Origin: a virus
Taxonomy: Duplodnaviria > Heunggongvirae > Uroviricota > Caudoviricetes
Length of the DNA: 15,970 nucleotides
Strand: one strand, 5' to 3'
Virus record (IMG/VR): IMGVR_UViG_2778261276_000005
Span: 1-15,970 of that record
Part shown: in pieces, positions 1-15,970 of the stretch
How positions within the stretch are numbered: position 1 is the first letter of the stretch
How the letters are laid out: each line of letters opens with the position of its first letter
Translations under genes and position numbers: made by a program
The notes under the pieces: model-generated
Databases searched by the model: none
What the model was told of the DNA's origin: nothing
The model's input: the letters and a program-made list of their open reading frames with translations, nothing else

Positions 1-209
1 GTGGCGGCCTCAGTCCGGAACAATTTGAAAACCAGAACCTCGCTTAGGCCTGTGTCCATATTACGTGGGTAGGATCAGTTATCCCTTCGTATCAATGACT
101 GACTCTTAAACGCAATGCTTTGGTTGCTGGCGTATCTGACAGCTTCTTCGGCGTGAAGGTCGTTGTGTAAGTATACTTCTTGGTTTATTTAGGCTATATA
201 AAACCATGA

Positions 210-1106
210 CTATGACTGGCTGTTTTCAGTAAGAGTCTTATCATCCAAAGAATTTATTCTAGAAATTCTTTTTAACTCATTAAGATAATCAACCTCGTTT
301 TCTAAGAACCAATGAAGAACTTTAGAGTTGCCAAGTAATTTATTAATATATGACTGGATTATAACGAATTTCAACATATCTGAACCATACTCGGTTTGAA
401 GTTTTTTCGTTTCTTCCGAAGTTGTTGCCATTTCTTGTTCCAGACGAAGTATGGTTTTTTTTATGTCCTTTTTATAGGGAGTGTTTTTCCCTTTATTTAC
501 TATCATCGATGACGGTGTTGCATCCAAGATGCTCATTGCAAATTTTTTACTATAATTATCAAAATTAATCATTGTACCGACTGCTTCAATTTGACGAATT
601 GGCTTCATTTTCCTCAAAACGTCAAATGTAGCCTTAGGTATAGGTTTATCAGAAAGTTTCGCAATTACACTTGGATCTATGCCGTTCATCACATTAGCTT
701 TATCTTTTATGGCATCAACAGATATGCCCAAAGCAGCACTAAGTTTTTCAATTGATACTTTTGCCAGAGACTTAATTATCATTCTATGTTCTTCAACTAC
801 ATTTATATGATTCACTTGTTTGTTAGGAGTGAAAGCATCATCTATGCTCGAAAGTATACATGGAGCTTTTTCTATATCTAAGTCTTTTAAAGCCTCAACC
901 CTTAAATGGCCATCAAGTATCTTAGTGACATCTTTATCTTTGTCATAGAATACTATTATTGGTTCAATAATACCCAAGCTTTCGATAGAGGTAACTATTT
1001 GATGATATTTATGGCTTCGCTTTACGTTTTCTAATAATTCCTTAGATGGAATTAACTTATTAGTTTCCAGGTAAATAAAATTTTTGCCAAAACGTATCTG
1101 AATCAT
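210..1106 (-). CDS. ParB/Srx-fold protein (ParB N-terminal domain-like), paralog A
   Basis: 298-aa ORF; motif ILDGHLRVEAL resembles ParB box II / DGQHR-type arginine motif; ATG overlaps stop of the upstream gene (ATGA at 1103-1106); AGAGG ribosome-binding site about 8 nt upstream; AT-rich codon usage shared with the neighbours. Confidence 0.6.
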   Translation of the reverse strand: MIQIRFGKNFIYLETNKLIPSKELLENVKRSHKYHQIVTSIESLGIIEPIIVFYDKDKDVTKILDGHLRVEALKDLDIEKAPCILSSIDDAFTPNKQVNHINVVEEHRMIIKSLAKVSIEKLSAALGISVDAIKDKANVMNGIDPSVIAKLSDKPIPKATFDVLRKMKPIRQIEAVGTMINFDNYSKKFAMSILDATPSSMIVNKGKNTPYKKDIKKTILRLEQEMATTSEETKKLQTEYGSDMLKFVIIQSYINKLLGNSKVLHWFLENEVDYLNELKRISRINSLDDKTLTENSQS

Positions 1107-1999
1107 TTTGATACCTCTTTGTTTACTGGGTTTAATATCTGAGATGGTAGTTCTGAAAGATTCTCTTGTTCAAGTATATTTTGAAAGCTTTTATTCATCA
1201 TTATGATGTTAAAAATCTCATTTATTATTAGTAGATTGGTTTTTATAAATTTCGAGTTGTTATAAACAGATTTATGTTCAGCGATACTATTTTCATAAAG
1301 CTCAATCAACTCCTCTGCAGTCATCCTTTTTGATGGTTTGTGATAATAAAATCCGGCTGCTTTTGCACCTTTATTCCCAACTGTTCTTTGATTTAGAATG
1401 TATTTTATCTTTATAATGTCCCGACTTTTTATTAATTTTTTATCATATGCTTCGGTAAGAATATCTTGTGCTTCCTCAGTTTCACATCTTGCAAATTGCA
1501 CTGCGAGATACAGAGGCAAATTACCCCGTTCGACTGCTGAGAGAAGTTTATGCTCTCCCTTATCAAGAAGCATATTAATACTGCTCACCCAGTTCGATGA
1601 ATATCCAGTAATCTCACTTATTTCGGAGTCTGAAAGTCCTCTGATTTTCATGTCTTTAATCACCTGTAATAACTCATTAGAACGTGGTCTTCTCCTTGCA
1701 ATGTTTTCAACTAAACTCATAACGTAAGCATCTTCTTCTGATACATCTCTTATAATTGCTGGAATAATAGTTTCACCTAATGCAACAAGAGCCTCTATTC
1801 TCCCTTGACCACAAATTAAAGCATATTTGAAATCGTCTTCATCAATAGTTCTTACGCTTATAGGCTTGCTTAATCCTCTTTTTTTTATGCTTTCCTTTAT
1901 TTCTTCATGCACTACCTTATTTCTTGTTCGTGGGTTAAGAAATTTTATTTTTGCAATCTCAATTTGAATTATTGGGAATTCATTTTTTTCAGGCAGCAT
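1103..1999 (-). CDS. ParB/Srx-fold protein (ParB N-terminal domain-like), paralog B
   Basis: 298-aa ORF; LICGQGRIEAL (box II-like G-x-x-R-x-x-A) and SLVENIARRRP (ParB box III-like) motifs; start overlaps the recombinase stop (1989-1999); GAGGGA ribosome-binding site 5 nt upstream. Confidence 0.65.
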   Translation of the reverse strand: MLPEKNEFPIIQIEIAKIKFLNPRTRNKVVHEEIKESIKKRGLSKPISVRTIDEDDFKYALICGQGRIEALVALGETIIPAIIRDVSEEDAYVMSLVENIARRRPRSNELLQVIKDMKIRGLSDSEISEITGYSSNWVSSINMLLDKGEHKLLSAVERGNLPLYLAVQFARCETEEAQDILTEAYDKKLIKSRDIIKIKYILNQRTVGNKGAKAAGFYYHKPSKRMTAEELIELYENSIAEHKSVYNNSKFIKTNLLIINEIFNIIMMNKSFQNILEQENLSELPSQILNPVNKEVSK

Positions 2000-3545
2000 A
2001 TAGTTCCCTCACTTTCATGCGAGTAATAATTTGTAGAAATTTATCAAGATTATCAAATCTATAGAGATCTAACCGAATGTTGTTTGTTTCCATCATACAC
2101 ATTTTACTATATTCGTTTTCAATCTTTGGTATGATATAAAAATCAAGAGGTGAAATATTTTGTGAATTCATTCGTATAACAATTGTTATGTCTGCTTTCT
2201 GTGAGTTATCAAACCGGACTTTCCATCTAAGTTTACCTGATTTCATATGTATGCATTTAGTAACAAGGACGGAAATTAAAAACTCATCATTGATGTAAAG
2301 CATTGGGTAATATTTATACTCGTCTATATGACAGTTACTTTTTAATATTTCGCCCTTAAAATCCTCAATTATCTCTGAGTAAAATGATCTTAGTGCTTCA
2401 TTTATTTGGAGATAGCTGTAATCATGTTCTGGCTTATAACCAATCAAAGTATATGCTCTTAAAAGACCACCAAATCGGGTTCTATAAACAGAAGATGAAG
2501 GGCCTGTATCATCTTCATCAATGATAAAGCCTGATAGTTTTCCATTAGATTCTAATTTTTCTTTTAGCTTTTCTAATAGATCTTCATTAGTCAAATGAAT
2601 GGATCGGAGCTGAATTATTTCTTGAGCTTTATTATATTTTTTCTTTGAAATAATTGGTTTATATGCCTTGTCACATCTAATCCATTCATGTTTGGGGTTT
2701 TTTACAAGCCTACTTTTTAGTTTAGATGAGGTTTTGTTATATATGTTGTTTCCAATATATTTTTCATTTGTCAAAATTTGATGTATTTTTGCACGAGTCC
2801 ATGATGTTCCATTTTCTGCAGGTATGCTCTGTTCATTTAATCTCTCAGCAATAATGAATTCTGGGACGTTACTATCTATAAAGAGATCATAGATTCTATT
2901 TACAATTTTTATTTCATTTTTTGGTCCCGGAATTAATATTACCCTATCTGTTTGAATACTCTTTCTTTTGCGGAAATTCAATATTTCTTTAGCTATGCCA
3001 TTTTCGTCTACTAAAAGACGTCTCAGCCCATAACCAGCCATACCGCCTTGATGATAACCAAGCTTTATTAAATTTACTTGCCCTATAAATACCTTTTCAG
3101 ATAGATTCCTGCTGTGATATGCAGCACTTGATCTTTTTATATTCAGTATAACAGAGGACTCTAAAGGGAAATCTTTAGTGGGTATAGGTTCGGAACAATA
3201 TATAAGATCTACACCATTTCTTTCAAATAGAAAGGAATAATATGCAGCTTCATCACTATTTTGAAAACGACCAAAACGGCTCACATCATAAAATAATACA
3301 GCCTGTATATCTATTTTCTTTTGTTCTACATCGCTAAGTAACTGCTGCAAAGAATGCCTGCCTACGATACTGACTCCGCTCTTACCTGCATCATCGTAGG
3401 TATAAGCGATTTCCATATTGTTCTTTTCAGCATAATCTTTGATATATTCAGACTGATTATGTAAAGAATATTGCTGATGGTCGGTAGACATCCTCAAGTA
3501 CTGTGCGACCCTAACTCTATGATTTTTTTCATTTCCGCTAGCCAT
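1989..3545 (-). CDS. Large serine recombinase (resolvase/invertase-type catalytic domain plus long C-terminal recombinase extension)
   Basis: N-terminal motif YLRMSTDHQ with the catalytic Ser, typical of serine recombinases; about 518 aa from the ATG at 3545 (the ORF track begins at a TTG at 3551); GAGG 8 nt upstream of that ATG. Confidence 0.85.
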   Translation of the reverse strand: MASGNEKNHRVRVAQYLRMSTDHQQYSLHNQSEYIKDYAEKNNMEIAYTYDDAGKSGVSIVGRHSLQQLLSDVEQKKIDIQAVLFYDVSRFGRFQNSDEAAYYSFLFERNGVDLIYCSEPIPTKDFPLESSVILNIKRSSAAYHSRNLSEKVFIGQVNLIKLGYHQGGMAGYGLRRLLVDENGIAKEILNFRKRKSIQTDRVILIPGPKNEIKIVNRIYDLFIDSNVPEFIIAERLNEQSIPAENGTSWTRAKIHQILTNEKYIGNNIYNKTSSKLKSRLVKNPKHEWIRCDKAYKPIISKKKYNKAQEIIQLRSIHLTNEDLLEKLKEKLESNGKLSGFIIDEDDTGPSSSVYRTRFGGLLRAYTLIGYKPEHDYSYLQINEALRSFYSEIIEDFKGEILKSNCHIDEYKYYPMLYINDEFLISVLVTKCIHMKSGKLRWKVRFDNSQKADITIVIRMNSQNISPLDFYIIPKIENEYSKMCMMETNNIRLDLYRFDNLDKFLQIITRMKVRELYAA

Positions 3546-3827
3546 GCACAAAACCTCATGGATGATTCAATACAATGTAGAGGATAAAATTGATCAAATT
3601 TTAACCGAATTCAACTGTTTTATCATTGATTAGAGCGAATTTGGTAGTTCTTCGAGGTGTATGATAATCGAGAAGAGATGTGAATTATTTAGCTGATATG
3701 ACCGACAGCTTTCGTTATGTGGCCTCAAGGTACCCATTTGTAAATGGCTATGCTTAGTCCACATAGGTTAATGGTGTGATCATTAATTCTTCAAATAAAT
3801 CAAGATAGTTAACCCATCATGGAAGAG

Positions 3828-5057
3828 TTATGCGGCAATAACTTTGTATTTTTGAGACGAAACATAGTCACTCCACCATTGCATGAGAACCACACGTTCT
3901 GTGAGATACTCTGCACGATTGTAGGCTGCAATTATTTCATCTTTTTTCGAGTGGGCAAGGGCGGCTTCTAAGACATCAGTTCTAAACTTGCCACACTCCT
4001 CAGCCGCCGTTCTAGCGATTGATCGCATACCATGAGCTACAAGCTCACCTCCGAAGCCCATACGGATTATAGCCGCATTAGCTGTTTGTTCATGCATGTG
4101 ATTGAGTGGAGCTTTGATACTGGGAAAAACCCACTCTCTATGCCCGCTGATGGCTTTCATTGAATCCAAGACTCGCAAAGATTCTTTGCTCAGTGGAACT
4201 TTGTGAGGCTTCTTCATTTTCATAAACTCCGCCGGGATGTTCCACATGCTGGTTTCTATATCAATATCTGACCATCTTGTGCGAACAGCTTCACCAGGGC
4301 GAACCCATGTGAGAAGTTGCCACTCAATCAGTAGCCTTGTTTCTAAACGGATAGAAGCATTGTTTAGAGCAACCAGGAAGCGGGGGAGTTCGGAAGGGGG
4401 TAATGCTGGCATATTCTGTTTTTTTGGCTTGCTGAACCGTTGCCCCAGGTTGTCAGCCGGATTGAATTCTATGAGTTCTTCTGTTGCTGCATAGCGGAAA
4501 ATTTCATTCAGGCGGGATATGACGCGGCGAAGTGTTTCAAGGACACCTCGTTTTTCTATGGGGTCTAAATGCTGTTTAAGCATTTTAGGGCGAATCTCCT
4601 TAATGGGGGTATCACCCAACGTTGGAAAGATATTTCTCTCTAGGCTTCGCCAGATGTCGTTAGCATGATCCTGGGAGATGCCTGACGTTTTGACTTTCTC
4701 ATCAAGCCACTTCTTGGCTACTGCTTGAAATGTATGTTCCGTTGCATCCTTAAGGGCATTGGCTTTGTGGGTGTTATGAACTTGTGGGTCTATACCATTT
4801 GCAAGCAACGACAAGTACTCATCACGTAAAGCTCGTGCCTTCGCAAGTGTAAGGTGAGGATAGGTTCCTAAGCTCACCTTAGTTCGCTTTTTGGTCACAG
4901 GCACTGCATATCTGAAATACCAATTTTTCTTTCCTCCCTTCGCTAAGGGGGCGATTCGCAGGAGCAAACCATCGCCGTCAAAAAGGTTAACCTCTTTCTC
5001 GGCAGGTTTGGTGCTTTTGATTTCAGTGTCAGTGAGCTTCTTAGCGATTTTTGCCAT
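3828..5057 (-). CDS. P4-family tyrosine integrase
   Basis: Arm-binding N-terminus (KNWYFRY), C-terminal catalytic region with HGMRSIARTAAEE ... LAHS ... AYNRAEY (R/H/Y catalytic residues); the ORF track extends to 5201, but the ATG at 5057 (MAKIAKKL...) has a GAGGG ribosome-binding site 8 nt upstream, giving about 410 aa. Confidence 0.9.
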   Translation of the reverse strand: MAKIAKKLTDTEIKSTKPAEKEVNLFDGDGLLLRIAPLAKGGKKNWYFRYAVPVTKKRTKVSLGTYPHLTLAKARALRDEYLSLLANGIDPQVHNTHKANALKDATEHTFQAVAKKWLDEKVKTSGISQDHANDIWRSLERNIFPTLGDTPIKEIRPKMLKQHLDPIEKRGVLETLRRVISRLNEIFRYAATEELIEFNPADNLGQRFSKPKKQNMPALPPSELPRFLVALNNASIRLETRLLIEWQLLTWVRPGEAVRTRWSDIDIETSMWNIPAEFMKMKKPHKVPLSKESLRVLDSMKAISGHREWVFPSIKAPLNHMHEQTANAAIIRMGFGGELVAHGMRSIARTAAEECGKFRTDVLEAALAHSKKDEIIAAYNRAEYLTERVVLMQWWSDYVSSQKYKVIAA

Positions 5058-5100
5058 GTTTGGGACCCTCATGTTTTGGACCCTTTGTGTTGGGTCCCAA
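5058..5100 (-). promoter_or_regulatory. Cluster of GGGACCC-type repeats just upstream of the integrase start (possible regulator or integrase binding sites)
   Basis: GTTTGGGACCC (5058-5068), GTTTTGGACCC (5073-5083) and the inverted copy TTGGGTCCC (5090-5098) within 45 bp. Confidence 0.3.
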
Positions 5101-5155
5101 AAAGGGTGCCATAACGAGTAGATTCTAGCAATTCTCGGTAGACTACTATAGACGT

Positions 5156-5189
5156 AAAAAAGCCCGCAAGGCTGGTTCCATGCGGGCTT
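5156..5189 (-). terminator. Rho-independent terminator, minus strand, just downstream of the ssrA 3'-end fragment
   Basis: Perfect 9-bp inverted repeat AAGCCCGCA / TGCGGGCTT (5160-5168 / 5181-5189) followed on the minus strand by a run of T (plus-strand A run 5156-5161). Confidence 0.6.
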
Positions 5190-5223
5190 GATAGACTTCA
5201 CTGAACTTCAATATATCAAAAAT

Positions 5224-5254
5224 TGGTGGAGCTGGCGGGAGTTGAACCCGCGTC
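5224..5254 (-). repeat. ssrA: 31-nt fragment identical to the 3' end of tmRNA (ssrA); attachment-site repeat, not a complete gene
   Basis: Minus-strand sequence GACGCGGGTTCAACTCCCGCCAGCTCCACCA matches the acceptor/T-arm 3' terminus of enterobacterial tmRNA as I recall it; similarity stops abruptly at 5255 and no tmRNA body follows. Confidence 0.8.
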
Positions 5255-5379
5255 AAAATTTATATAATCTTTTGTAAAATATACGTTTTTTCTATTGTTT
5301 TTGATCCGCGTATACTTCGCGTACACTTTGCCATTTGAACTTAAACATGCTGCCGTCGCTACATCATGACATGTTATTT

Positions 5380-6081
5380 TTACTTCTCATTTTCAAAGTC
5401 ATCACGAATGTTAATTAGATCTGTAATCAAAGCGCCAACTTTAGTTGAAGGATTTATCGAACCGTCTTTTTTGGCGGCATCTTCGACTCTTTTAGCATTG
5501 ATTAATGCCGTATCGAGCCGATCTTGCAATTTATTAAATACACCTGATGCCTTTTTCTCATAATCTGGCATGTATTTTTTTAACTCAGCTAGCATTTGTG
5601 CGCCTTCACTTTTGCCTTTCTGAGGTGAAAATGATTTTCGGGGGTATCCAAAATGTAGTATCAGCCAGTACTCGAAACATGGTATGGAAGTTATAGCAAC
5701 AAAAATCCCTTTTGGATTTAAGGAATTAATCCTGCTAAGAGCTTCATCATAGTTAGGGTGAGCGTCTCTATCAAAGACACAATAAACCTTATCATAAGGG
5801 TCGCTCCTTTTTTTTTCCGTATTATATTTTTCTTTTGCCCAAGATACCACATTCATAGGGCTTGAGCCGCACTCTCCAGAAATCTCAACTATGCTTGCCG
5901 TGCTTATACGGCAATGTTTTATAAAATCTGTAAAATATGCGGGCTCAGTCTTCTCTCCCTCACAGACGATAAGAATTTTCTTCATTTGAGCTCGTGCTTT
6001 ACTAACTCGTTTGAATTCATTATTACGCCGAGCCTTTCTTTTTTTGAACAGATCTTCGCTTCCCATTAATATCTCTCCCAT
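5380..6081 (-). CDS. RloB-like (AbiLii-family, TOPRIM/OLD-type) protein
   Basis: Motifs ILIVCEGEKTEPAYF, VFDRDAH and CFEYWLILHF characteristic of the RloB family; overlaps the upstream ATPase gene by 16 nt; an alternative ATG at 6066 (TAATG overlap, GGAG 8 nt upstream) would give 228 aa. Confidence 0.7.
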   Translation of the reverse strand: MGEILMGSEDLFKKRKARRNNEFKRVSKARAQMKKILIVCEGEKTEPAYFTDFIKHCRISTASIVEISGECGSSPMNVVSWAKEKYNTEKKRSDPYDKVYCVFDRDAHPNYDEALSRINSLNPKGIFVAITSIPCFEYWLILHFGYPRKSFSPQKGKSEGAQMLAELKKYMPDYEKKASGVFNKLQDRLDTALINAKRVEDAAKKDGSINPSTKVGALITDLINIRDDFENEK

Positions 6082-7331
6082 TTCCCAATGAGTGGTAAAG
6101 CCCCATATCTACCGTCAAGATAAGAAGCTTCTAAATTCTCCCTTCCTTTTCTTGGACTAAAATCCGTAAGTGGGAAAAGATTTGTTTGCTTTGAATTGTC
6201 TTTTTCTACAAACCAAATCTGATCTCGTCTGAAAACATCTTGATTTAAAATAGACGTCTCATGAGTTGTAAAGATTAACTGGGCACCATTCTTATTGATA
6301 TTTTTATCGTGAAATAAACCTACAATAAACTCAACTAATTTGGGGTGTAAGTTATCATTTAATTCATCAATAAACAGGATGTTTCCTGTCTCGAGTGAAT
6401 GTGATAAGGGACCCGCGAAACTAAAGATTTTTCTAGTTCCATGCGATTCATCTTTTAAATCGAATGGAATTGGCTCTCCATCCTCATTATTATGAAGTGT
6501 TTTAATGACATATTCTTCCTTGCCTTGCATATTCTTAATCACTAGTTCCTTGATGGCTGCAGGCATATCATCAGGAAGAGCATTGGGATTGAATTTTTCT
6601 TTTGTTACATGAATGTCATCAATACCTACATCGGCAGCTTTTAAAAAATTGAGAATCTCATCTTTCTTATCATTTAAGCATTGCTTTGCACTGTAATCAC
6701 TATCCCAACCTGTTAATTCAGTAAATTTAACTTTGTAATAAAACCAATCGTATACAGGTTTTAGTTGTACACTGTTTAATTGTACCGCTGTAGAAAGAAA
6801 GAGCGCATTAGGCCTAGTTGATTTCAACCATGTTTGTTTTTCTCCTGTCAACGATGGCCCCAACTCCCATTCATGGGTTTGTTTTTCTTCATCCCATAGA
6901 CGTAAAAACCATTTTTGTGGTCTGCCTTTGGGGAATGCAAATAACCATTCGTCGTGAATAAAATCTTCTGTTGCAGAAAAACCATACTGGTATCTGATGC
7001 CTTCGGAAATAAAGTTAATTTCAAATTCAGATGGTTGATTAATCTTCTTTGAGTCTAGTCTAAAAGGCGTGATATCAAGTTTATCACCACTTTTATAACC
7101 TGTAGCAGACCGGACAATAAGTTCAGCCATAGTTGTAATAGCGTTAATAATGTTTGATTTTCCGGCAGCATTAGGGCCATAAATCACAGCACTTTTAAGC
7201 AATTCAAGAGATTTAGGTTCATCAATACTGAACAGATTATTAGGCAAATCGTTAAGTTTTGATGCAACTAAACTCAGTGTTTGTTTCTCTGAAATAGATT
7301 TATAGTTTTGTACTGTAAACTCAATCAACAT
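6066..7331 (-). CDS. AAA/ABC-type ATPase (AbiLi-like, AAA_21/AAA_15-type)
   Basis: Walker A GPNAAGKS near the N-terminus, Walker B LFIDELNDNLH near the C-terminus, 421 aa; AT-rich; first gene of a two-gene operon. Confidence 0.75.
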   Translation of the reverse strand: MLIEFTVQNYKSISEKQTLSLVASKLNDLPNNLFSIDEPKSLELLKSAVIYGPNAAGKSNIINAITTMAELIVRSATGYKSGDKLDITPFRLDSKKINQPSEFEINFISEGIRYQYGFSATEDFIHDEWLFAFPKGRPQKWFLRLWDEEKQTHEWELGPSLTGEKQTWLKSTRPNALFLSTAVQLNSVQLKPVYDWFYYKVKFTELTGWDSDYSAKQCLNDKKDEILNFLKAADVGIDDIHVTKEKFNPNALPDDMPAAIKELVIKNMQGKEEYVIKTLHNNEDGEPIPFDLKDESHGTRKIFSFAGPLSHSLETGNILFIDELNDNLHPKLVEFIVGLFHDKNINKNGAQLIFTTHETSILNQDVFRRDQIWFVEKDNSKQTNLFPLTDFSPRKGRENLEASYLDGRYGALPLIGKWERY

Positions 7332-7521
7332 AATTTATACCCTTTTAACTTCCCATAGCTTAAAAACCACTAAAAGTGATTTTATAGCACAAATTTGACA
7401 AAAAACGTCAAATCTTTGCATTTAATGCACACTAAAACCATTGTACACTATCCTCATCATCCTGCTAACATTCTTGTAAGCTTTACTGTTTTGCGAAGGG
7501 GGGCTAGTGCTATCGGGCGTT

Positions 7522-8718
7522 TTACTTCTCAATTTTCATGTTCTCCGGATTTTTTGATACTTGGTCCTTACAAGCTGTCTTGCCATCATAGTCTACGAGA
7601 TACGAACCATAATGCCTGAAAAGCATTTCCGGCCCTTTATGCCCCATTTGAGCTGCAAGCCAAAACAGATTTGCTCCTCGGCTGATATGGCTGGTGGCGA
7701 ATGTATGCCTAGTTTGATATGGATTTCTGTATCGAATACCTGCTTTCCGTAATGTTGGCACCCATGCTTTTTTCCTGATTGCATCAGCACTTGCCCAAGG
7801 CTTATTGGTCTTTGGGTCTTCAAAGACAGTAGCATCCTTCATGAATGTAAATGGCTTCTGATTTATCAGCGCCAACATTGCCTCTTCTGTCAGTTCAACT
7901 TTACGAGTACCTGCTTTTGTCTTTGTCCCTTTGATAACACCGACAACACTTGCGCTCTGGACATGGGCAGTTTTTCCAACAAAGTCGATATCACGCCATC
8001 GAAGGGCACATAATTCAGAACTACGCAGGCCTGTATGTATAGCGAACCGGAACAGATTCTCCCATTGTTTGTTTCCGGCTGCTGCTAGTAATGCATCAAC
8101 TTCTGTTGGTGATAGCGGATCAACCACGTAGCTGCTTTCTACTTCTGACTTATCACTTTGGTAGCGCGAAGCAGTTACCAACGATACGGGGTTAATTTGA
8201 AGTACCCCATCGGTTACGGCTTCATCAAGTGCTGACCGCAGGAAAGATAACTGGTTGCGAATTGTTTTTAAGGTCGTTTTCTGGCTTTGAATCCACGCTT
8301 TCAGGATTGCTGGTGTTAATTCACTTGCAGGGCAAATGTGGAGTGAGGCTAACGCACTACGGCATTTTTTATAACCACCAATCGTAGATGGTGAAAGTTT
8401 TCTCGTTTCGCAGATTTCAAGGTATTCGTCCAGGTACATTTTTACCGTTTTGCCTGCAGCAGCATTACCAAAAATTTTCAAACGAGCAGAACGGGGAAAA
8501 TATTCCGCATAAATGAATGTTCCCCTTTCGATCTTATTATGAATTTCGCCGAGTGTGCGCTCGGCGTATTTAATGTTCTTTGGTGTTACTTCCAGATTGG
8601 AAAGTGGCTCACGACATTTAACTCCTTTGTAGGTGAAAGTTATATTGATCGTTTCTCCCTGACGGTGTTTTCTGATTGTTACGCCGCGCGGTAGTTTGAG
8701 CAGTTTTGTCTGGCCCAT
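7522..8718 (-). CDS. Lambda-family tyrosine integrase
   Basis: 398 aa; C-terminal catalytic region RHTFATSHISRGANLFWLAAQMGHKGPEMLFRHYGSY and a C-terminus ending ...KIEK as in lambda Int; GAGG ribosome-binding site 7 nt upstream; 5' end overlaps xis. Confidence 0.9.
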   Translation of the reverse strand: MGQTKLLKLPRGVTIRKHRQGETINITFTYKGVKCREPLSNLEVTPKNIKYAERTLGEIHNKIERGTFIYAEYFPRSARLKIFGNAAAGKTVKMYLDEYLEICETRKLSPSTIGGYKKCRSALASLHICPASELTPAILKAWIQSQKTTLKTIRNQLSFLRSALDEAVTDGVLQINPVSLVTASRYQSDKSEVESSYVVDPLSPTEVDALLAAAGNKQWENLFRFAIHTGLRSSELCALRWRDIDFVGKTAHVQSASVVGVIKGTKTKAGTRKVELTEEAMLALINQKPFTFMKDATVFEDPKTNKPWASADAIRKKAWVPTLRKAGIRYRNPYQTRHTFATSHISRGANLFWLAAQMGHKGPEMLFRHYGSYLVDYDGKTACKDQVSKNPENMKIEK

Positions 8719-8885
8719 TTTGCAACCTCACTAAGATCAATCCACCTCTCCTTAACGCCTTCAACCTTTAAAACCTGAACACCTTCACGCCAAACACCGC
8801 GCTGTACACGTTTGTTTATTGCTTCAGGAGTTTCGCCAGTTTCTTTGCAATAAGTTGAGATAGGAACGCAATCGAGGTTCAGCAT
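8679..8885 (-). CDS. Excisionase (Xis-like winged-helix DNA-binding protein)
   Basis: Small basic protein directly upstream of and overlapping int; W/R-rich pattern (VQRGVWREG...ERWIDLSEVAKW) like lambda Xis; ATG at 8885 has GGAG 6 nt upstream (the ORF track begins at a GTG at 8897). Confidence 0.65.
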   Translation of the reverse strand: MLNLDCVPISTYCKETGETPEAINKRVQRGVWREGVQVLKVEGVKERWIDLSEVAKWARQNCSNYRAA

Positions 8886-8944
8886 ATGTTTCTCCACTTA
8901 GCCCGCTGCACACGGGCAGTAATATCAAATTCCAGTCCTGATAA

Positions 8945-9160
8945 TTAATTTTGTTCTCTGGTTGCTACCTGTTTTATTGGCCTGATGCTGTCCAGGAGCA
9001 GACGGCGACGCATGTTTGGCGCACCCCAACGGTAACCAGTCTTTTTGTCGTAGGATTCACAACGTCCGGCAACCCAGGACGTTTCAGTGGAATGTAATTT
9101 CATCCGCTTTTCACCGTCTCGGGTGATAACAATTCCTGTATGAGTTTTTATCACGCTCAT
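8945..9160 (-). CDS. Hypothetical small phage protein
   Basis: 71-aa ORF; ATG overlaps the stop of the upstream gene (ATGA at 9157-9160), i.e. translationally coupled within the leftward operon. Confidence 0.45.
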   Translation of the reverse strand: MSVIKTHTGIVITRDGEKRMKLHSTETSWVAGRCESYDKKTGYRWGAPNMRRRLLLDSIRPIKQVATREQN

Positions 9161-9519
9161 TTCTTAGTCTCTGGTGCTTTCGGCATTACTGCCCAGTGAG
9201 TGATATTGACGTTTTCAAGGTCCCCGACCTGAAATGTCCACTGCCATTCTCCGGTTTCTTTTTGCCCCCATGTGTACCAGAGAGAACGCCAGCCAATCAG
9301 CCAGCCTTCTCCATTAGCATCAAATAACAGAACACTTTCATTTGCTGGCGGCAGTTCAGCTGACACTGGTATTACTTTGTTTTCCAGAGCCGCACATTTA
9401 GCTTCAAGCGCATCGAATTTACGTACCAGATACTCAGCATTTGTTTCATTCACTTTCAGATCTCGCGGTACACATTTCCCGCGAAGAACCCCTTCCATTT
9501 CGAAAACATTCATGCGCAT
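9157..9519 (-). CDS. Hypothetical phage protein (Trp-rich C-terminus; YfdS-like by size and position)
   Basis: 120-aa ORF; GGAG 8 nt upstream of the ATG; overlaps the stop of the upstream HD-domain gene by 10 nt. Confidence 0.55.
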   Translation of the reverse strand: MRMNVFEMEGVLRGKCVPRDLKVNETNAEYLVRKFDALEAKCAALENKVIPVSAELPPANESVLLFDANGEGWLIGWRSLWYTWGQKETGEWQWTFQVGDLENVNITHWAVMPKAPETKK

Positions 9520-10046
9520 TTGCGTAACTCCGATAATTCGTTAAAGCGTTCCATAAACATCCCGTAGGCATGGCCTGGAGCCAGTGGAATCACGTTGAAC
9601 ATCTCTGTTGCCGGGATACCTTCCAGCACAGGCCAGAAAGAGCCATCATCAAGCCCGAGATCGCGGCGTTCGGTTGCCAGCATGATGAGATCGGCATATT
9701 TCACGGGGGTACTCATAACCGGGGGTAACCCGTATTTCTCACGGATTACGGCGTCTATTTTTTCTTCCATCCGTTTATAGTCAGGAAGAAGGCGTTTCAG
9801 TGGCGCCGGGATGTCCTGGCAATACGCTTCTGTTGCATCATGCATTAACGCTTCAAAAGCAAATTCCTGCGGTACCAGTTGGCTGCAAAGCACCGCATGT
9901 TGGGCGACGCTGTAGAAATGTGAAAGATGTCCTGCAAAGCGACAGATATTTGAAAGAGAAACCGCGATATCGTTAATAACGATGTCGTCTTTATTTATCC
10001 TGTCATAATAAAAATGCTTCCCGGAAAAAGTTTTAATAAATGACAT
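9510..10046 (-). CDS. HD-domain metal-dependent phosphohydrolase (YfdR-like putative 5'-deoxynucleotidase)
   Basis: H...HD motif pattern (SVAQHAVLCSQL, LMHDATEAYCQDIP); the ORF track starts at a GTG at 10073, but the ATG at 10046 has GGAG 8 nt upstream and gives 178 aa. Confidence 0.75.
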   Translation of the reverse strand: MSFIKTFSGKHFYYDRINKDDIVINDIAVSLSNICRFAGHLSHFYSVAQHAVLCSQLVPQEFAFEALMHDATEAYCQDIPAPLKRLLPDYKRMEEKIDAVIREKYGLPPVMSTPVKYADLIMLATERRDLGLDDGSFWPVLEGIPATEMFNVIPLAPGHAYGMFMERFNELSELRKCA

Positions 10047-10139
10047 TTTGTTCTCCACGTATATGCGCTGCACCGCGCTGAATTCTGGTAAAAGGAAGCC
10101 CTCACCATCCGGCGATTATTGAGTCAATTACGTTTCCAT

Positions 10140-10161
10140 AAATGCCCCCGCAGGGGCATTT
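10140..10161 (-). terminator. Perfect stem-loop right after the stop of the upstream gene (weak terminator or stability hairpin)
   Basis: AAATGCCCC-CGCA-GGGGCATTT, 9-bp stem with a 4-nt loop, 13 nt downstream of the stop at 10174; only a short U-tract. Confidence 0.35.
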
Positions 10162-10173
10162 GCAGTAATGAAA

Positions 10174-10998
10174 TCAGGCGGTGAAAGTACCAATAAAGGT
10201 TTCTACTTTGCTGTCCTTGAATTTCTCAACAAGCAGATCACGAAATTCGTTAGCCATTTCTTCCTGCACTGCTTCCAGCTGAATAATGCGCAGAACCAGT
10301 ACAGGACGATCGCCAGTGATAATGCTGAGGCGTAATTTAAACGGACGTTCTTTCAGGCCTTCAAACGGAACGCATTTAAATTCAAATGCCACAGGCATAA
10401 TATCTTTGGTCTTCGCTTCGACAGACTCCATCAGGGAGCGTTTGCCGCTGAAGTCATTGTCTTCAAAATCAGCGGTCTGGTTTGCTTCAATCGTGATTTT
10501 ACGGACTGCCGCAGCCGCTTTTGTTGCCTGAATGGCATCACCATTAGCATCAAAGCCCACAAGGTAGTCGGCCCAGTCTTCGATCCATTCTGCCAGTGAC
10601 TTCTGGGAGTTACGCTCGCCGTTAACAGACAACAGAGCAGAGAACGGTGCTGTCTTTTTCAGTTTGAGAGTGGCAGTGTTATCTGCGTGACCTGGCTCAT
10701 CAATAGTACCCAGGTTAAGCACACTGACGGCACGCATATTATCGGCATCGATAAAGCAGCGGGTGCCTTCATCTGCAAGATCTTTAGAATAACGAGTAAA
10801 GTCATCGATGCTGGCAGTGGAAAGCGCACCACGGAAACGGAAACGATTTAAATTAAATTTTTCCAGATCATGAATGCGGAAATTCTCAGGCAATGCCACA
10901 GCATCGGCACCAATCTTACTGATAATTTCATTAACACCCTGAGCAGAAATAAGGGCATGGATTTGATTAATTGCGGTTGCGTCTAAGTTCTGAGACAT
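10174..10998 (-). CDS. Phage protein of unknown function (YfdQ-like, 274 aa)
   Basis: Long ORF with GAGGA ribosome-binding site 6 nt upstream of the ATG; size and neighbourhood match the yfdQ-type gene of KplE1/CPS-53-like prophages (from memory, unverified). Confidence 0.65.
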
Positions 10999-11063
10999 AA
11001 TAAGTCCTCACTATATAAAAATATTCAGTGATGAGAGAAATAATCAGTTTATTAAAAACGATA

Positions 11064-11426
11064 TTAATGACCTGCTGCGCGGAGTTTTCCGTCAGGTTCA
11101 CCGGCAAGAGTCAGTAATTGTCCCTGGTCTTCCTGCAGAATAGTCAGGCGACCACCGCGATTGACATACATCGGCGTTTCGGTGGTGTCTTCTTCGGAAA
11201 TTTTCCCGCGGTTAGTCGGGCGAACATATGAGAGTTTGTGTTTGATTTTCACACGGTTCTCATCAAATGGTTCGATTTCCAGGTTGAGTGAGACCTTACC
11301 TTTGGTTTTCGTGTTCATCACACCGGAAGCGACTTCACTGAGAACTGCGCCGATTTTTGTTTCAAATACGCCGCCGTCCAGCTCCCCGATAAATGCCTGC
11401 ACATCAGTACTGCGTTCGCTAGCCAT
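11064..11426 (-). CDS. Hypothetical phage protein, first gene of the leftward early operon
   Basis: ORF track gives 197 aa from 11657, but the N-terminal 77 codons run through the GC-rich hairpin region; the ATG at 11426 (MASERSTDV...) has GAGGAG 7 nt upstream and gives 120 aa. Confidence 0.55.
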   Translation of the reverse strand: MASERSTDVQAFIGELDGGVFETKIGAVLSEVASGVMNTKTKGKVSLNLEIEPFDENRVKIKHKLSYVRPTNRGKISEEDTTETPMYVNRGGRLTILQEDQGQLLTLAGEPDGKLRAAGH

Positions 11427-11562
11427 TTTGTTGCTCCTCATCATATCGACCCTGCAAGGCCGATTAGTTTCTCCACAAAACAGAGAAGAACACCTGCGGT
11501 GGCAGCCGCCCGGATGGATTGGGTTATGAGCCCGTCGTCCGGTGATGCTCTTCTCTGTTTTG

Positions 11563-11609
11563 TAAAAAGAGCGGTACCAGCCGGAAGCAAGTGTACAAAC
11601 TGGTACCGC
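11563..11609 (-). terminator. Strong intrinsic terminator on the minus strand inside the leader of the leftward operon
   Basis: Perfect 10-bp inverted repeat GCGGTACCAG / CTGGTACCGC (11571-11580 / 11600-11609) followed on the minus strand by TCTTTTTA. Confidence 0.6.
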
Positions 11610-12020
11610 CAAAGCAGTGGCTGTTGTGGTGGGGTTGTCACTCAGGCGTATGGTCAACCTGACAATCCGGTGTCCTCAACGGGGAAAGAGTAACCCCGCC
11701 ATACTTACCGCCGCGCCATTTCGCGGATGACCACAACGCTGAGAGCACTTAGCCAGTTACGGCACCACACTTTGTCGCGGCTCCATAAATGCCCTCATCG
11801 TTGCACCCTGGTCTCTTCCCAGGCGTCAAACCGGATCGCCACGCTGGTTAGGCGTCTTATCAGCATCATCATTGACTTGCACATTCCGGCTACCTGGTTT
11901 GTTTGCCCTAGCAAGGAGTGGATTGTCCCCTTTAACGTCCCCAGACCGCTAACGACGCATGTGCCATACGCCGTGTTACAACCAAATTTTGTTAGTACCT
12001 TGTTTGTTGGTCTGGAAAGA

Positions 12021-12049
12021 AAGATAAAATGAAATTGCGCGTTGTGCAA
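12021..12049 (-). promoter_or_regulatory. Candidate pL-like promoter for the leftward early operon
   Basis: Minus strand TTGCAC - 17 nt - TATCTT; the -35 overlaps a 15-bp TTGC-N7-GCAA operator-like palindrome. Confidence 0.4.
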
Positions 12050-12072
12050 GTGTTTTGTTGCGAGATATGCAA
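12035..12072. promoter_or_regulatory. Two operator-like palindromes (oL-like)
   Basis: TTGCGCGTTGTGCAA (12035-12049) and TTGCGAGATATGCAA (12058-12072) share the TTGC-N7-GCAA architecture with a site in the cI-cro intergenic region. Confidence 0.5.
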
Positions 12073-12082
12073 TTTAATGGGT

Positions 12083-12107
12083 AATGAAAAGCCACCTTCG
12101 GGTGGCT
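12083..12107 (-). terminator. Rho-independent terminator following the cI-like repressor gene
   Basis: Stem GCCACC-TTCG-GGTGGC (12091-12106) about 20 nt after the cI stop, followed on the minus strand by TTTTCATT. Confidence 0.65.
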
Positions 12108-12127
12108 AATTGATGAGGAGGTAAGGG

Positions 12128-12820
12128 TTAATTGTGTCGCTTAAGGGTTTGTGACTGGCTGATTAAGACCTTTCCAAAGACCATAAACCGGTGTTCATTT
12201 TCGCTGGTAATTCCCCATTCACGGTAAATCTGGTTATCAGAAATCACCAGTAGTTTGTCAGGTATCATTTGCAGTCGTTTGACATAAATTTTATCATCAA
12301 AACCAAATACATAGATACCATCTCCATCAAACTGATTGATACTGACATCAACGAAGATGAGATCTCCTGGCTCAATGGTTGGACACATACTGTCCCCACG
12401 AACGTTGATAACTTTAATGTGATTGGCTGGTCGTCCGCCAAACATCGATACAGCATTATCAGTTCTGTATTCAATGGCATGAATCACATCAATGACATCA
12501 CCGCCCTGGATAAGGCCATTTCCCGCACTGGCACTGACATCCAGCATTTCAATACGGAATACATCCTTCACCTGCGCAACATCCTCACTAATACTGTTTT
12601 TACATACAGTATTACTTTTGAAGTCTGAGGTAAAGAGATCAGCAATATCAACACCTAAGCTCCTGGCAATATTACTCAGGGCTTGTTCAGTGAATTGTTT
12701 CTGCTTACCTGTTTCCAGGCGTGAGATATTCGCCGCATCCACTCCTATTGCTTCAGCGAGATCGGCGATTTTCATGTTCTTCGCCTGGCGAAGTTGTCTG
12801 ACTCGATTTCCTATGTTCAT
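12128..12820 (-). CDS. cI-like prophage repressor (XRE-type HTH plus LexA-like S24 autopeptidase domain)
   Basis: N-terminal HTH (VRQLRQAKNMKIADLAEAIGVDAANISRLETGKQ), C-terminal GDSM ... VKRL Ser/Lys dyad pattern; divergent from a cro-like gene. Confidence 0.9.
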   Translation of the reverse strand: MNIGNRVRQLRQAKNMKIADLAEAIGVDAANISRLETGKQKQFTEQALSNIARSLGVDIADLFTSDFKSNTVCKNSISEDVAQVKDVFRIEMLDVSASAGNGLIQGGDVIDVIHAIEYRTDNAVSMFGGRPANHIKVINVRGDSMCPTIEPGDLIFVDVSINQFDGDGIYVFGFDDKIYVKRLQMIPDKLLVISDNQIYREWGITSENEHRFMVFGKVLISQSQTLKRHN

Positions 12821-12917
12821 GCGTTTATTACATTTCTTTATTGCGCGTTAAGCAAATCAACTTGCGCAAAATAGTTGCGTGAAATAATATGCTTATCACG
12901 CAATATGTGGAGGTTAT
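12821..12917. promoter_or_regulatory. Immunity-region control region: divergent pRM-like and pR-like promoters with operator-like sites
   Basis: Plus strand TTGCGC (12862-12867) - 17 nt - TAATAT (12885-12890) then GGAGG and the cro ATG; minus strand TTGCTT (12855-12850) - 17 nt - TGTAAT (12832-12827) ending 6 nt before the cI ATG; palindrome TTGCGCGTTAAGCAA (12841-12855) and inverted repeat TTGCGTGA-N13-TCACGCAA (12875-12903). Confidence 0.6.
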
Positions 12918-13178
12918 ATGCAATCACCATTACGGAATGTGCGTAAAGCGCACGGATTTACTTTGCAGCATGTTGCTGCGGGCGTTCAGGTCAATCCAGC
13001 GACGCTGAGTCGTATTGAAAGACTGGAACAAATTCCATCTATCGACCTTGCAGAACGTCTGGCCAATTTTTTTAAGGGTGAAATCAGCGAAATGCAGATT
13101 CTTTATCCGGCACGTTTTCAATCTAGCCAAAACCAGAATGGGTTTAAACCACAGGAACAGGAGGTAAGCCGTGGGTAA
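12918..13178 (+). CDS. Cro-like HTH regulator
   Basis: 86 aa; HTH FTLQHVAAGVQVNPATLSRIER; GGAGG ribosome-binding site; divergent from cI across the operator region. Confidence 0.75.
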   Translation: MQSPLRNVRKAHGFTLQHVAAGVQVNPATLSRIERLEQIPSIDLAERLANFFKGEISEMQILYPARFQSSQNQNGFKPQEQEVSRG

Positions 13179-13722
13179 GCATCACTGGAAAGTGGAAAAA
13201 CAGCCTGAGTGGTACGTGAAAGCTGTCAGAAAAACTATCGCGGCGTTGCCGGGGGGGTACGCTGAAGCTGCTGAGTGGCTGGATGTAACAGAGAACGCTT
13301 TATTCAACCGCCTTCGTGCAGATGGCGATCAGATTTTCCCGCTGGGATGGGCAATGATTTTACAGCGCGCTGCTGGCACTCACTACATTGCGGATGCTGT
13401 CGCACAGTCTGCTGGTGGGGTGTTTGTATCGCTTCCTGAAATTGAGGAAGTAGAGAACGCAGATATAAACCAGCGCCTGCTGGAAGTCATCGAACAGATC
13501 GGGAGTTACTCAAAGCAGATTCGTTCGGCAATCGAAGATGGGGTAGTGGAGCCACACGAGCAGACAGCAATTAATGATGAATTGTATCTGTCAATTTCGA
13601 AGCTCCAGGAGCATGCGGCACTGGTCTACAAAATTTTCTGCGCTCCAGAAAAGAGTGACGCCCGCGAGTGTGCAGCTCCGGGCGTCGTGGCGTTTTGTGT
13701 CTGTGGAGAAACTAACGCATGA
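13171..13722 (+). CDS. cII-like / phage regulatory protein (putative)
   Basis: 183 aa, GTG start with GGAGG 6 nt upstream, overlapping the cro stop by 8 nt; position and acidic, helix-rich sequence suggest a CII/CP76-type regulator, but the family assignment is uncertain. Confidence 0.5.
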   Translation: MGKHHWKVEKQPEWYVKAVRKTIAALPGGYAEAAEWLDVTENALFNRLRADGDQIFPLGWAMILQRAAGTHYIADAVAQSAGGVFVSLPEIEEVENADINQRLLEVIEQIGSYSKQIRSAIEDGVVEPHEQTAINDELYLSISKLQEHAALVYKIFCAPEKSDARECAAPGVVAFCVCGETNA

Positions 13723-14870
13723 ACAGTTTAACGGCAAATAACCGTTTGTCGCAACAGCTGGTGGTCAGTGTCGCTGCACACCTGTTGTTACGGCATGAAT
13801 GCAGATTACCAAATCACCTGGCTGTAAGTAACCACAGAGAACTTTACCTGACTGTGGGGGGCGAGTTGTGCAGGAACTTAACCGCTGGTTTCGTGACGGA
13901 AGAGGACTTTATGTTCATGTTATTCGTTGGGAGCCAGAAACACAGCGCGTTATCTATCTTCGCAAAGACTACCCGCATGAGTGCTTTAGTCCTTTGTGGA
14001 AATTCAGGCGTGATTTTGTTGAGTGTGAAGGACCACCAGCACATTGATTCTGCCATTCCGGGACGTTACACTGTTCAGGCACCTTATAAAACGGGTGCCG
14101 GGCGTGGAAACCCGGAATTCACCAAAGCGCACAACCGCGCTCTTGCGGTTTTTTTGTGTCATGAGCAGCATTACGCCCAAATTATGGTGGGGCGTGCAGG
14201 GCCAACTTCGGTTGGGCCGGGTTCTTTGGTGACCGGTATTTCCACCCCTGTACGTCTCACCACCAATAAGGTCGTGGAAAGCCTTGGTGGTGAGTTATTA
14301 AAAATCACCAAAGAGGCTGCCATCATGGCTACGATCCCAACCCTCACTCAACCTGAAATTGCCATCGTTGATGGTCAGGCTGTTACTTCATCTCTGGCTG
14401 TTGCCAACTTCTTCTCCAAACGTCATGACGATGTACTGAAAAAGATCCGCACGCTTGAATGCTCCGCATCATTCACTGCCCGCAATTTTTCGGTGAGTGA
14501 TTACACCGATTGCACAGGCCGCAAACTACCTTGCTATCAAATAACCCGCGACGGCTTTGCGTTTCTTGCTATGGGGTTCACGGGTAAACGTGCTGCCCAG
14601 TTCAAAGAGGCATACATCAATGCCTTTAACCAGATGGAGAAACAGCTTTCAAAGCCCGCTGTACCGAGCGACGTTGCACATAACGCCAGCGTTCTCTGTT
14701 CCTACATTTCATCAATTCATCAGGTCTGGCTGCAGCAGCTTTATCCTATGTTGGCAAAAGCCGAATCCCCGCTGGCTGTTAGCTTGTATGACTATATTAA
14801 TGATGCTTCGGCACTGGCCTGCCTCATAAATTTGTCACTGAACCCTTCAGAGGTAAGGGGGCGCAAATGA
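13719..14870 (+). CDS. Rha-family phage regulatory protein (Rha domain in the C-terminal half; N-terminal about 200 aa of unclear assignment)
   Basis: Frame open for 383 codons with ATG overlapping the upstream stop (ATGA at 13719-13722); Rha-type motif IAIVDGQAVTSSLAVANFFSKRHDDVLKKIRTL begins just after an internal ATG at 14325, which has AAGAGG 9 nt upstream and may be the true start. Confidence 0.55.
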   Translation: MNSLTANNRLSQQLVVSVAAHLLLRHECRLPNHLAVSNHRELYLTVGGELCRNLTAGFVTEEDFMFMLFVGSQKHSALSIFAKTTRMSALVLCGNSGVILLSVKDHQHIDSAIPGRYTVQAPYKTGAGRGNPEFTKAHNRALAVFLCHEQHYAQIMVGRAGPTSVGPGSLVTGISTPVRLTTNKVVESLGGELLKITKEAAIMATIPTLTQPEIAIVDGQAVTSSLAVANFFSKRHDDVLKKIRTLECSASFTARNFSVSDYTDCTGRKLPCYQITRDGFAFLAMGFTGKRAAQFKEAYINAFNQMEKQLSKPAVPSDVAHNASVLCSYISSIHQVWLQQLYPMLAKAESPLAVSLYDYINDASALACLINLSLNPSEVRGRK

Positions 14871-15091
14871 TCCGGAATATTTTCAAACGGTTTACCAATC
14901 ATACTTTCCGTTGTCCTCGTCCGGGTCAGTGGTACACCACGCCTGCAGGGCATGTTCTACGTGTTAGCCTGGTGGACCGTGAATGTCAGAAGGTGATTTG
15001 TGAACCGCTGGGCCGTAATTACCGCGTCAGTATGCCGCTTATAGCCTTTTGCTCCGGAAAAAACATGAAGCATCTCGGAGGTGCAGCATGA
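14867..15091 (+). CDS. Hypothetical small phage protein
   Basis: 74-aa ORF; ATGA overlap with the Rha stop at 14867-14870, and its own stop overlaps the next start (ATGA at 15088-15091). Confidence 0.45.
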   Translation: MIRNIFKRFTNHTFRCPRPGQWYTTPAGHVLRVSLVDRECQKVICEPLGRNYRVSMPLIAFCSGKNMKHLGGAA

Positions 15092-15894
15092 GTATGGAGC
15101 TGATGGTTAAAGCGATGAAAATTCGAGTGGGTAATCCATTACGAAAACTGGTTCTGATCAAGCTGGCTGATAATGCCAGCGATCAGGGTGAGTGCTGGCC
15201 CAGCTACCAGCATATTGCTGACCAGTGCGAGATTAGCAAACGTTCTGTGATGAATCATATTGCGGCCCTTTGTGAGTCCGGGCTGGTAAAAAAAGTCACC
15301 CGGAAAGGTGAAAAAGGTAACTCAAGTAATATCTATCTCCTTCATCTGGATGGTGCAGGAGATTCACTAGGGGGTAGTGCAAATAATTCACTATCTGGTG
15401 CAGCAAATTCACCAGGTAGTGCAGGAGTTGCACCAGGGGGTAGTGCAGGAGATTCACCCAGAACCAGTCACTCTTTTGAACCAGTCAATGAACCAATAGC
15501 TGTTGGTGCATCTGCTGATGAGTCTGTGCGAGTTCGTTCAAACCGACCGGAATACTCTCCGGAGTTTGAGCAGGCATGGCTGGCATACCCCAAACGTGCT
15601 GGTGGCAATTCAAAATCTGCAGCCTTCAAAGCCTGGAAAGCCCGTTTGAATGAGGGGGTAAAACCCGAAACCATGCTGGAAGGTGTGAAACGCTACGCGG
15701 GCTGGGTATCTGCGATGGCTAACAGCGGAACACAATTTGTGAAACAGGCTGTCACGTTCTTTGGTCCGGATCGTCATTTCGAAGAATCCTGGGAAGTTCC
15801 TGCGGTATCTGCAGCCAGACGCGAGGACCCGTACTTCAAAGCCAGTTACGACAACGTGGACTACAGCCAGATCCCGGCAGGATTCAGGGGGTAA
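15088..15894 (+). CDS. Replication initiator, lambda O-like (N-terminal HTH, low-complexity linker, C-terminal domain)
   Basis: HTH region LRKLVLIKLADNASDQGECWPSYQHIADQCEISKRSVMNHIAAL; start ATG at 15088 has GGAGG upstream (the ORF track starts at 15049); contains in-frame direct repeats at 15354-15467. Confidence 0.7.
   Translation: MSMELMVKAMKIRVGNPLRKLVLIKLADNASDQGECWPSYQHIADQCEISKRSVMNHIAALCESGLVKKVTRKGEKGNSSNIYLLHLDGAGDSLGGSANNSLSGAANSPGSAGVAPGGSAGDSPRTSHSFEPVNEPIAVGASADESVRVRSNRPEYSPEFEQAWLAYPKRAGGNSKSAAFKAWKARLNEGVKPETMLEGVKRYAGWVSAMANSGTQFVKQAVTFFGPDRHFEESWEVPAVSAARREDPYFKASYDNVDYSQIPAGFRG
15354..15467. repeat. Five tandem imperfect 21-24-bp direct repeats (iteron-like; candidate origin of replication inside the O-like gene)
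   Basis: TGCAGGAGATTCACTAGGGGGTAG / TGCAAATAATTCACTATCTGG / TGCAGCAAATTCACCAGGTAG / TGCAGGAGTTGCACCAGGGGGTAG / TGCAGGAGATTCACCCAGAACCAG; every unit length is a multiple of 3. Confidence 0.5.
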
Positions 15895-15896
15895 TC

Positions 15897-15970
15897 ATGA
15901 GTCTTTTGAATGAAGTTCAGAAATTCATTGAAGCCCATCCGGGGTGTACTTCCGGAGACATTGCGGATGC
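15897..15970 (+). CDS. 5' end of the next rightward gene (partial; possibly the replication partner of the O-like gene)
   Basis: ATG at 15897 preceded by GGGGG 5 nt upstream, directly after the O-like stop; encodes MSLLNEVQKFIEAHPGCTSGDIAD..., running off the window. Confidence 0.4.
   Translation, partial: MSLLNEVQKFIEAHPGCTSGDIAD

Follow-up and report, generated by a model that had tools for sequence, protein, structure and literature searches.

The stretch of DNA analysed here (the window, 15,970 nt in its whole length) is E. coli DNA. Its best complete genome is that of EC71, which covers 89% of it at 98.4% identity, and none of the complete genomes in the collection searched matches the window as a whole. 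Two integrated elements share it, an island with a P4-type integrase below 5223 and a lambdoid prophage from 5255 onward, and what lies between them, at 5224..5254 on the minus strand, is a displaced duplicate of the final 31 nt of ssrA, the tmRNA gene.

Read on the minus strand from 5254 to 5224, the copy is GACGCGGGTTCAACTCCCGCCAGCTCCACCA. The initial annotation had taken it for the 3′ terminus of tmRNA and suggested alignment to a reference ssrA, and that alignment bears it out: positions 333-363 of the 363-nt EC71 gene (the reference coming from the closest complete genome, where the gene is annotated as tmRNA) are identical to it at 31/31 nucleotides, with BLAST E = 1.3e-12. Its parts are, in order, GAC, a T-stem half GCGGG, the T loop TTCAACT, the other T-stem half CCCGC, the acceptor 3′ strand CAGCTCC and ACCA, and the T-arm hairpin is recovered in the fold. 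There is one match to the ssrA end in the window, even with 3 mismatches tolerated; dinucleotide-preserving shuffles gave 0 in 200, and none is expected by chance. The abrupt end of the match at 5255, also initially annotated, is real, the window there having ...aaatttt then GACGCGGG and ssrA having ...ggaatttcg.

As had likewise been claimed, the body of a tmRNA is absent, which makes this an attachment-site copy and not a gene. ARAGORN found zero tmRNA and zero tRNA genes over the whole window, the Rfam tmRNA model reached 31 bits (below its gathering score of 47, and only when stretched over 5224-5557), and BLAST with the EC71 ssrA found no resemblance elsewhere in the window beyond the 31 nt. 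A complete tRNA-like domain, a tag reading frame and pseudoknots, all expected of a functional tmRNA gene, are lacking at 5224-5254.

Two shorter segments are nested within the copy. One is the 25 nt GGTTCAACTCCCGCCAGCTCCACCA at 5224..5248 (minus strand), equal to the attP/attB of the Citrobacter phage phiNP, which lysogenises E. coli K-12 at the ssrA 3′ end and for which experimental mapping placed attP and attB in the 25-bp end of that gene (Magaziner et al. 2019, PMC6456863); on the plus strand, 5224-5248 is exactly the phiNP core TGGTGGAGCTGGCGGGAGTTGAACC. The other is the last 14 nt, CGCCAGCTCCACCA, at 5224..5237 (minus strand), the segment of which P4-type, CP4-57-like islands have a repeat at the far end.

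The island and the prophage

Directly below the copy, the minus strand at 5058..5223 is the island leader, the downstream flank of the core, which in prophage-free genomes is joined to the intact ssrA. Folding reveals in it a strong intrinsic terminator hairpin, AAGCCCGCA...UGCGGGCUU and then a U run (5154..5189, minus strand), that in those genomes sits 34 nt past the mature ssrA 3′ end; the ssrA of K-12 has a homologous hairpin after it. Next is the gene for a tyrosine integrase of 409 aa (3828..5057, minus strand), which the initial annotation had put about 170 bp downstream on the same strand and assigned to the P4 family. Both statements hold, as the ATG at 5057 is 166 nt from the CCA end on that strand, with equal spacing after the intact ssrA of strain G4/9, and as a domain search returned the P4-type set Arm-DNA-bind_3, Phage_int_M and Phage_integrase, with 49% identity to IntA of the K-12 island CP4-57 (E = 3e-137). 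Besides this integrase, the annotated genes of 1-5223 are those for a large serine recombinase (520 aa, 1989-3551) and two ParB/RepB-like proteins (1103-1999 and 210-1106), all on the minus strand and island cargo. Stop and start codons overlap within this trio, which follows ssrA and int in G4/9 too, partly pseudogenised but with its order kept; anti-phage defence models applied to 210-3551 gave a single weak match, that of a methyltransferase model to the second ParB/RepB-like protein (E = 3.8e-06).

Scanning of 4950-5450 for promoters yielded none. The leader and its terminator hairpin also give a partial Rfam match to the small RNA IsrM (5156-5233, minus strand; 42 bits, the gathering score being 376), with homology limited to the last ~52 nt of the model. 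As 261 of the 329 model positions are absent, an IsrM gene at this place was rejected, and the 042-type variant of the leader (L009 11044-11113) is even nearer to the IsrM consensus. Salmonella STM2763 we take to be a P4-type integrase gene, which would make the position of isrM equivalent to that of the island leader. Salmonella isrM is located between STM2762 and STM2763 (PMC2330248). A bolder conjecture is that the ssrA fragment together with the island leader may be expressed as an IsrM-like small RNA.

On the other side of the copy, 125 AT-rich nucleotides (5255..5379, minus strand) separate the core from the stop codon of an RloB-family gene and constitute the integrase-proximal arm of the prophage attachment site, the arms being named here by position relative to the int gene and not by the lambda P/P′ convention. 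The RloB-family protein (5380..6081; Pfam RloB 3.3e-39) is the AbiLii of PADLOC (3.1e-29), and its partner, an AAA_21 ATPase (6066..7331; Pfam 1.3e-38), is AbiLi (4.2e-101), both being defence cargo on the minus strand. Beyond them, still on the minus strand, are the lambdoid tyrosine integrase gene (7522..8718), whose product has 92% amino acid identity to phiNP Int, and the gene for an excisionase (8679..8897), with 92% identity to the annotated phiNP Xis and, as in phiNP, overlapping the start of int. The remainder, 8898..15970 without strand assignment, is early and immunity region, with DUF2303/YfdQ, an S24-type CI-like repressor (12128-12820), an Ash/Rha ORF and a DnaD-like replication protein, and the prophage extends past the window end at 15970. 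Two RNAs above their Rfam gathering scores, an isrK-like RNA (14079-14155, plus strand, 67.9 bits) and a C4 antisense RNA (14180-14267, plus strand, 83.6 bits), both lie inside the Ash/Rha ORF (13719-14870), and the region amounts to a P1/P7-type c4-ant immunity module within a lambdoid prophage.

The integrase-proximal arm holds a tandem pair of ~12-nt motifs, AAAGTGTACGCG AAGTATACGCGG (5306-5329, minus strand), of the form AAAGnnnnCGCr twice over, ~65-88 nt upstream of the core. It keeps the same distance from the core in the window prophage, phiNP and 2 other prophages, and it is only in the alignment of these four that it becomes visible, a k-mer search for arm-type sites common to both arms being ambiguous alone. 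These motifs are candidate arm-type Int-binding sites. The pair recurs in the integrase-distal arm of EC71, at about 22320-22345 (minus strand) of that locus, as AAGGATACGCAAAGGAGCCGCGG.

The intact gene in relatives and the order of insertion

EC71 is 99.9% identical to the window over 5224-8718, and in it the order of features is smpB, intact ssrA, restriction-modification cargo, tail to head genes, Q, cI, int, AbiL, the 31-nt copy and the P4-type int; lysis and tail-fibre genes are also carried by its prophage. Its two ssrA ends are on the same strand, 47.7 kb apart. UK_Dog_Liverpool has the layout of EC71 with a shorter, defective prophage. The expectation of the initial annotation that the intact ssrA should lie outside the window is thus met by both genomes, which have it at the far end of the prophage and on the same strand. 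The other side of the island in EC71 leads to ypjA remnants, ileY and glaH, the region that in K-12 follows CP4-57. From these relatives, 96-99.9% identical, we infer a tandem array in the source genome, the window itself containing neither the intact ssrA nor either far end.

Cargo at the ssrA side of the prophage differs between its bearers. Between tail-fibre genes and ssrA, EC71 has a type II restriction endonuclease, a cytosine methyltransferase and a GIY-YIG protein (L002 19523-22199), UK_Dog_Liverpool has other genes, and phiNP has HicAB and an acetyltransferase. As the genes differ at each end, both att-proximal ends of this prophage family hold variable cargo.

The state of the locus before arrival of the prophage is represented among sequenced genomes. 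A chimeric query, composed of the last 150 nt of ssrA and window 5223..4758, stands for the junction predicted without the prophage; at least 20 complete genomes match all of its 616 nt at 100%, and 1081 E. coli genomes match it at 80% coverage or more. One such genome, G4/9, has the order smpB, ssrA, the same integrase, ParB/RepB genes and ypjA. The junction present in the window (prophage arm, core and island leader) was found at that coverage in only 10 complete genomes, independently assembled, and the block from int through AbiL to the copy in 15 complete genomes. Since the prophage-free junction occurs in 1081 genomes against 10, the island was at ssrA first and the prophage came later, between gene and island. 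That the copy separates two successive insertions had been the initial claim, and the fusion of ssrA to the very flank now downstream of the copy substantiates it.

On a wider scale, a search of 5422 E. coli genomes finds the 31-mer (matches of at least 28 nt) 5722 times, the median per genome being 1 and the highest number 4; displaced extra copies of the ssrA end in these genomes number about 300 and are unannotated fragments. An integrase like that of phiNP is present at 90% DNA identity or more in 412/5426 genomes.

The extent of the repeat and the choice between readings

With two integrases flanking one copy, 7522-8718 being that of the prophage and 3828-5057 that of the island, the length of the copy distinguishes between them. 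The repeat that P4-type islands at ssrA leave at their far end is 14 nt in K-12 (psaA, b4645, CCGCCAGCCCACCA) and 13 nt in G4/9 (CGCCAGCCCACCA). The integrase-proximal arms of four prophages (that in the window, phiNP, and one each from a 042-type and an ST131 strain) can be aligned, with an identical 25-nt core in 4/4, and the ssrA-like blocks of these four prophage ends depart from ssrA only upstream of the 25-mer, the breakpoint in the three others being within 6 nt of the same place. Because P4-type islands repeat only 13-14 nt and the prophage arms align around the 25-nt core, the 31-nt extent is, on this comparison of sequences, set by the attachment site of the phiNP-like prophage and not by the P4-type integrase. 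The last ~14 nt double as the ssrA-side core of the island, whose integrase would use just these, and so 5224..5254 serves as core to two junctions at once, the integrase-side one of the prophage and the ssrA-side one of the island. The prophage has its integrase and the 31-nt fragment; the island has its integrase, and its own fragment is not in the window. A third copy, at the far end of the island, was sought even with 10-nt cores and is absent both in the window and for 22 kb leftward in EC71; far-end fragments of islands are seen only in K-12 and G4/9, that of this island being outside the window. As the far-end repeat is lost in EC71, the island is possibly immobile.

The P4-type integrase gene 166 nt downstream is a classic tDNA-integrase arrangement, from which it could be argued that the copy is solely the ssrA-side repeat of the island, and that the prophage sits by chance at an unrelated adjacent site. 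The short repeats just described speak against this, as does the sequence upstream of the copy, which aligns with the integrase-proximal att arm of phiNP-like prophages; furthermore, the other prophage end adjoins the intact ssrA in relatives, and removal of the prophage in silico restores a junction found at 100% in many genomes. Such a coincidence is very improbable. Even less credit is due to the idea of a pseudogene, a second ssrA that has lost its 5′ part. The sub-threshold Rfam tmRNA match over 5224-5557 might seem to favour it, but what matches ssrA there is the last 31 nt alone, the remainder being RloB coding sequence and AT-rich arm; the breakpoint is shared, to within 6 nt, with the three other phiNP-like prophage ends, and the median number of ssrA-end copies per E. 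coli genome is one, the extras being fragments without annotation. To regard the match as a chance resemblance or the product of a chimeric assembly is just as implausible as the pseudogene, the former being countered by the shuffles (0/200) and the BLAST E of 1.3e-12, and the latter by recurrence of the junction, at 80% coverage or more, in 10 complete genomes assembled independently and of the int-AbiL-copy block in 15.

It is thus very probable, to a degree approaching certainty, that the 31 nt are a displaced ssrA 3′ fragment resulting from integration of a phiNP-like lambdoid phage at the 3′ end of the tmRNA gene. The phiNP record itself (OR565852.1) has the ssrA end at both termini: it starts with the ssrA end and an arm with clear homology to what comes after the intact ssrA of EC71, and it finishes with an arm and a 36-nt ssrA end with one mismatch. 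The window prophage resembles phiNP in orthologous Int and Xis and the same 25-bp core, in a homologous integrase-distal arm (phiNP compared with EC71), in a proximal arm with the tandem motif and an AT-rich tract, though of modest overall identity, and in having cargo genes between int and core. It differs in the ssrA-identical block, which is 31 nt here and in phiNP 36 nt with one mismatch, 25 nt being exact; in cargo, AbiLi/AbiLii here and an AAA ATPase with a methyltransferase in phiNP; and in the rest of the prophage, which is mosaic, with a DNA-level match only in the int-xis region (83%). When the phage collection was searched with 5224-8900, phiNP alone was found (int and xis) together with a trivial 41-nt match, and no free phage with this exact cargo. 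Lysogens of phiNP in K-12 would show the same order of ssrA, prophage, copy and an island with a P4-type integrase, in that case CP4-57.

CP4-57 is the counterpart for the older element. Here as there, an ssrA 3′ end is directly followed by a P4-type integrase gene of the same orientation, the leader has a terminator hairpin, and both elements lie in one part of the chromosome (ssrA through ypjA, ileY and glaH). In K-12, however, intA adjoins ssrA, the far-end repeat being the annotated psaA (b4645), whereas the island here has been parted from ssrA by the later prophage; the integrases are only 49% identical, and the cargo is a serine recombinase and two ParB/RepB-like genes here in contrast to alpA, yfjI and others in CP4-57, with no alpA among the genes annotated in the part of the island that the window covers.

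Integration, cargo and the layered locus

The proposed sequence of events is as follows. The phage attachment site, consisting of proximal arm, core and distal arm, bears a copy of the ssrA 3′ end, and recombination by Int in the block common to it and the chromosome would rebuild an intact ssrA at the integrase-distal, tail-fibre end of the prophage. What had been the end of the gene, and all DNA downstream of it, would be shifted to the integrase-proximal end. What followed the gene in this lineage would have been the island with the P4-type integrase, inserted at ssrA earlier, so that the copy is now between prophage (5255 onward) and island (5223 downward), and the intact ssrA of the source genome would be expected to precede ATCATGATTGGACGG. 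Strand exchange would fall within the 25-nt block. Tyrosine recombinases acting at tRNA-like genes usually cross over in a 7-nt loop flanked by inverted stem halves, and the crossover here is probably at the 7-nt T loop between the inverted T-stem halves (GCGGG TTCAACT CCCGC). By recombining the copy with the ssrA end, Int and Xis could excise the prophage, and such excision would rejoin ssrA to the island leader, which is the junction seen in prophage-free genomes.

The interval from int to the ssrA fragment is occupied by different cargo in the phiNP-like prophages compared. AbiLi/AbiLii are there in the window (5380-7331, minus strand) and in EC71, and in 15/412 genomes with this integrase; an AAA ATPase and a methyltransferase are there in phiNP (L003 5349-8100) and the 042-type strain (L009 8226-10938), a STAS-like gene with two hypothetical genes in UTI89 (L008 8165-10035), and one hypothetical gene in the ST131 strain (L010 8215-8994). 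The interval resembles a variable slot for defence genes or morons. Older insertions by the same phage family have left remains in the region as well. The 150 nt after psaA in K-12 (L004 23487-23640) are homologous to the integrase-distal arm of phiNP-like prophages and derive from such an insertion, as does the DNA next to the displaced copy in the ST131 strain (L010 9060-9130), a relic of that arm; L006 28566-28720 belongs with these loci. G4/9 has, between remnants of pinH and ypjC (ypjCB), a degenerate relic of the ssrA end, TGCCAGCCCACCA (L006 ~34049-34061). Given these relics, old insertions lie stacked between ssrA and glaH. Somewhat short of an even chance, in our estimate, is the broader proposition that the interval between int and fragment is a dedicated, fast-exchanged slot for anti-phage cargo and that the ssrA-glaH region preserves, layer upon layer, the repeated insertions of one phage family, with islands bearing P4-type integrases in between.

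The phenomenon as such is already known, integration at the ssrA 3′ end and tandem arrays being well documented, and this is one more ordinary instance. Multiple island traffic at the tmRNA gene is reportedly the subject of a 2003 article by Williams, 'Traffic at the tmRNA gene'. The Islander method is built on such displaced pieces of tDNA and on tandem arrays, and it reports 125 arrays of at least 2 islands among 3919 islands (PMC4383910). The present locus appears to conform to its definition, with a regenerated target gene as judged from relatives, displaced 3′ fragments in the same orientation, that of the island being seen only in K-12 and G4/9, and one integrase gene per element. Beyond annotation there is nothing conceptually new in it, and it is in annotation that the copy is informative: it gives boundaries precise to the base, with the prophage ending at 5224-5254 and the island starting at 5223, it shows the order of arrival, the island being earlier and the prophage after, and it assigns the AbiL defence pair to the prophage.
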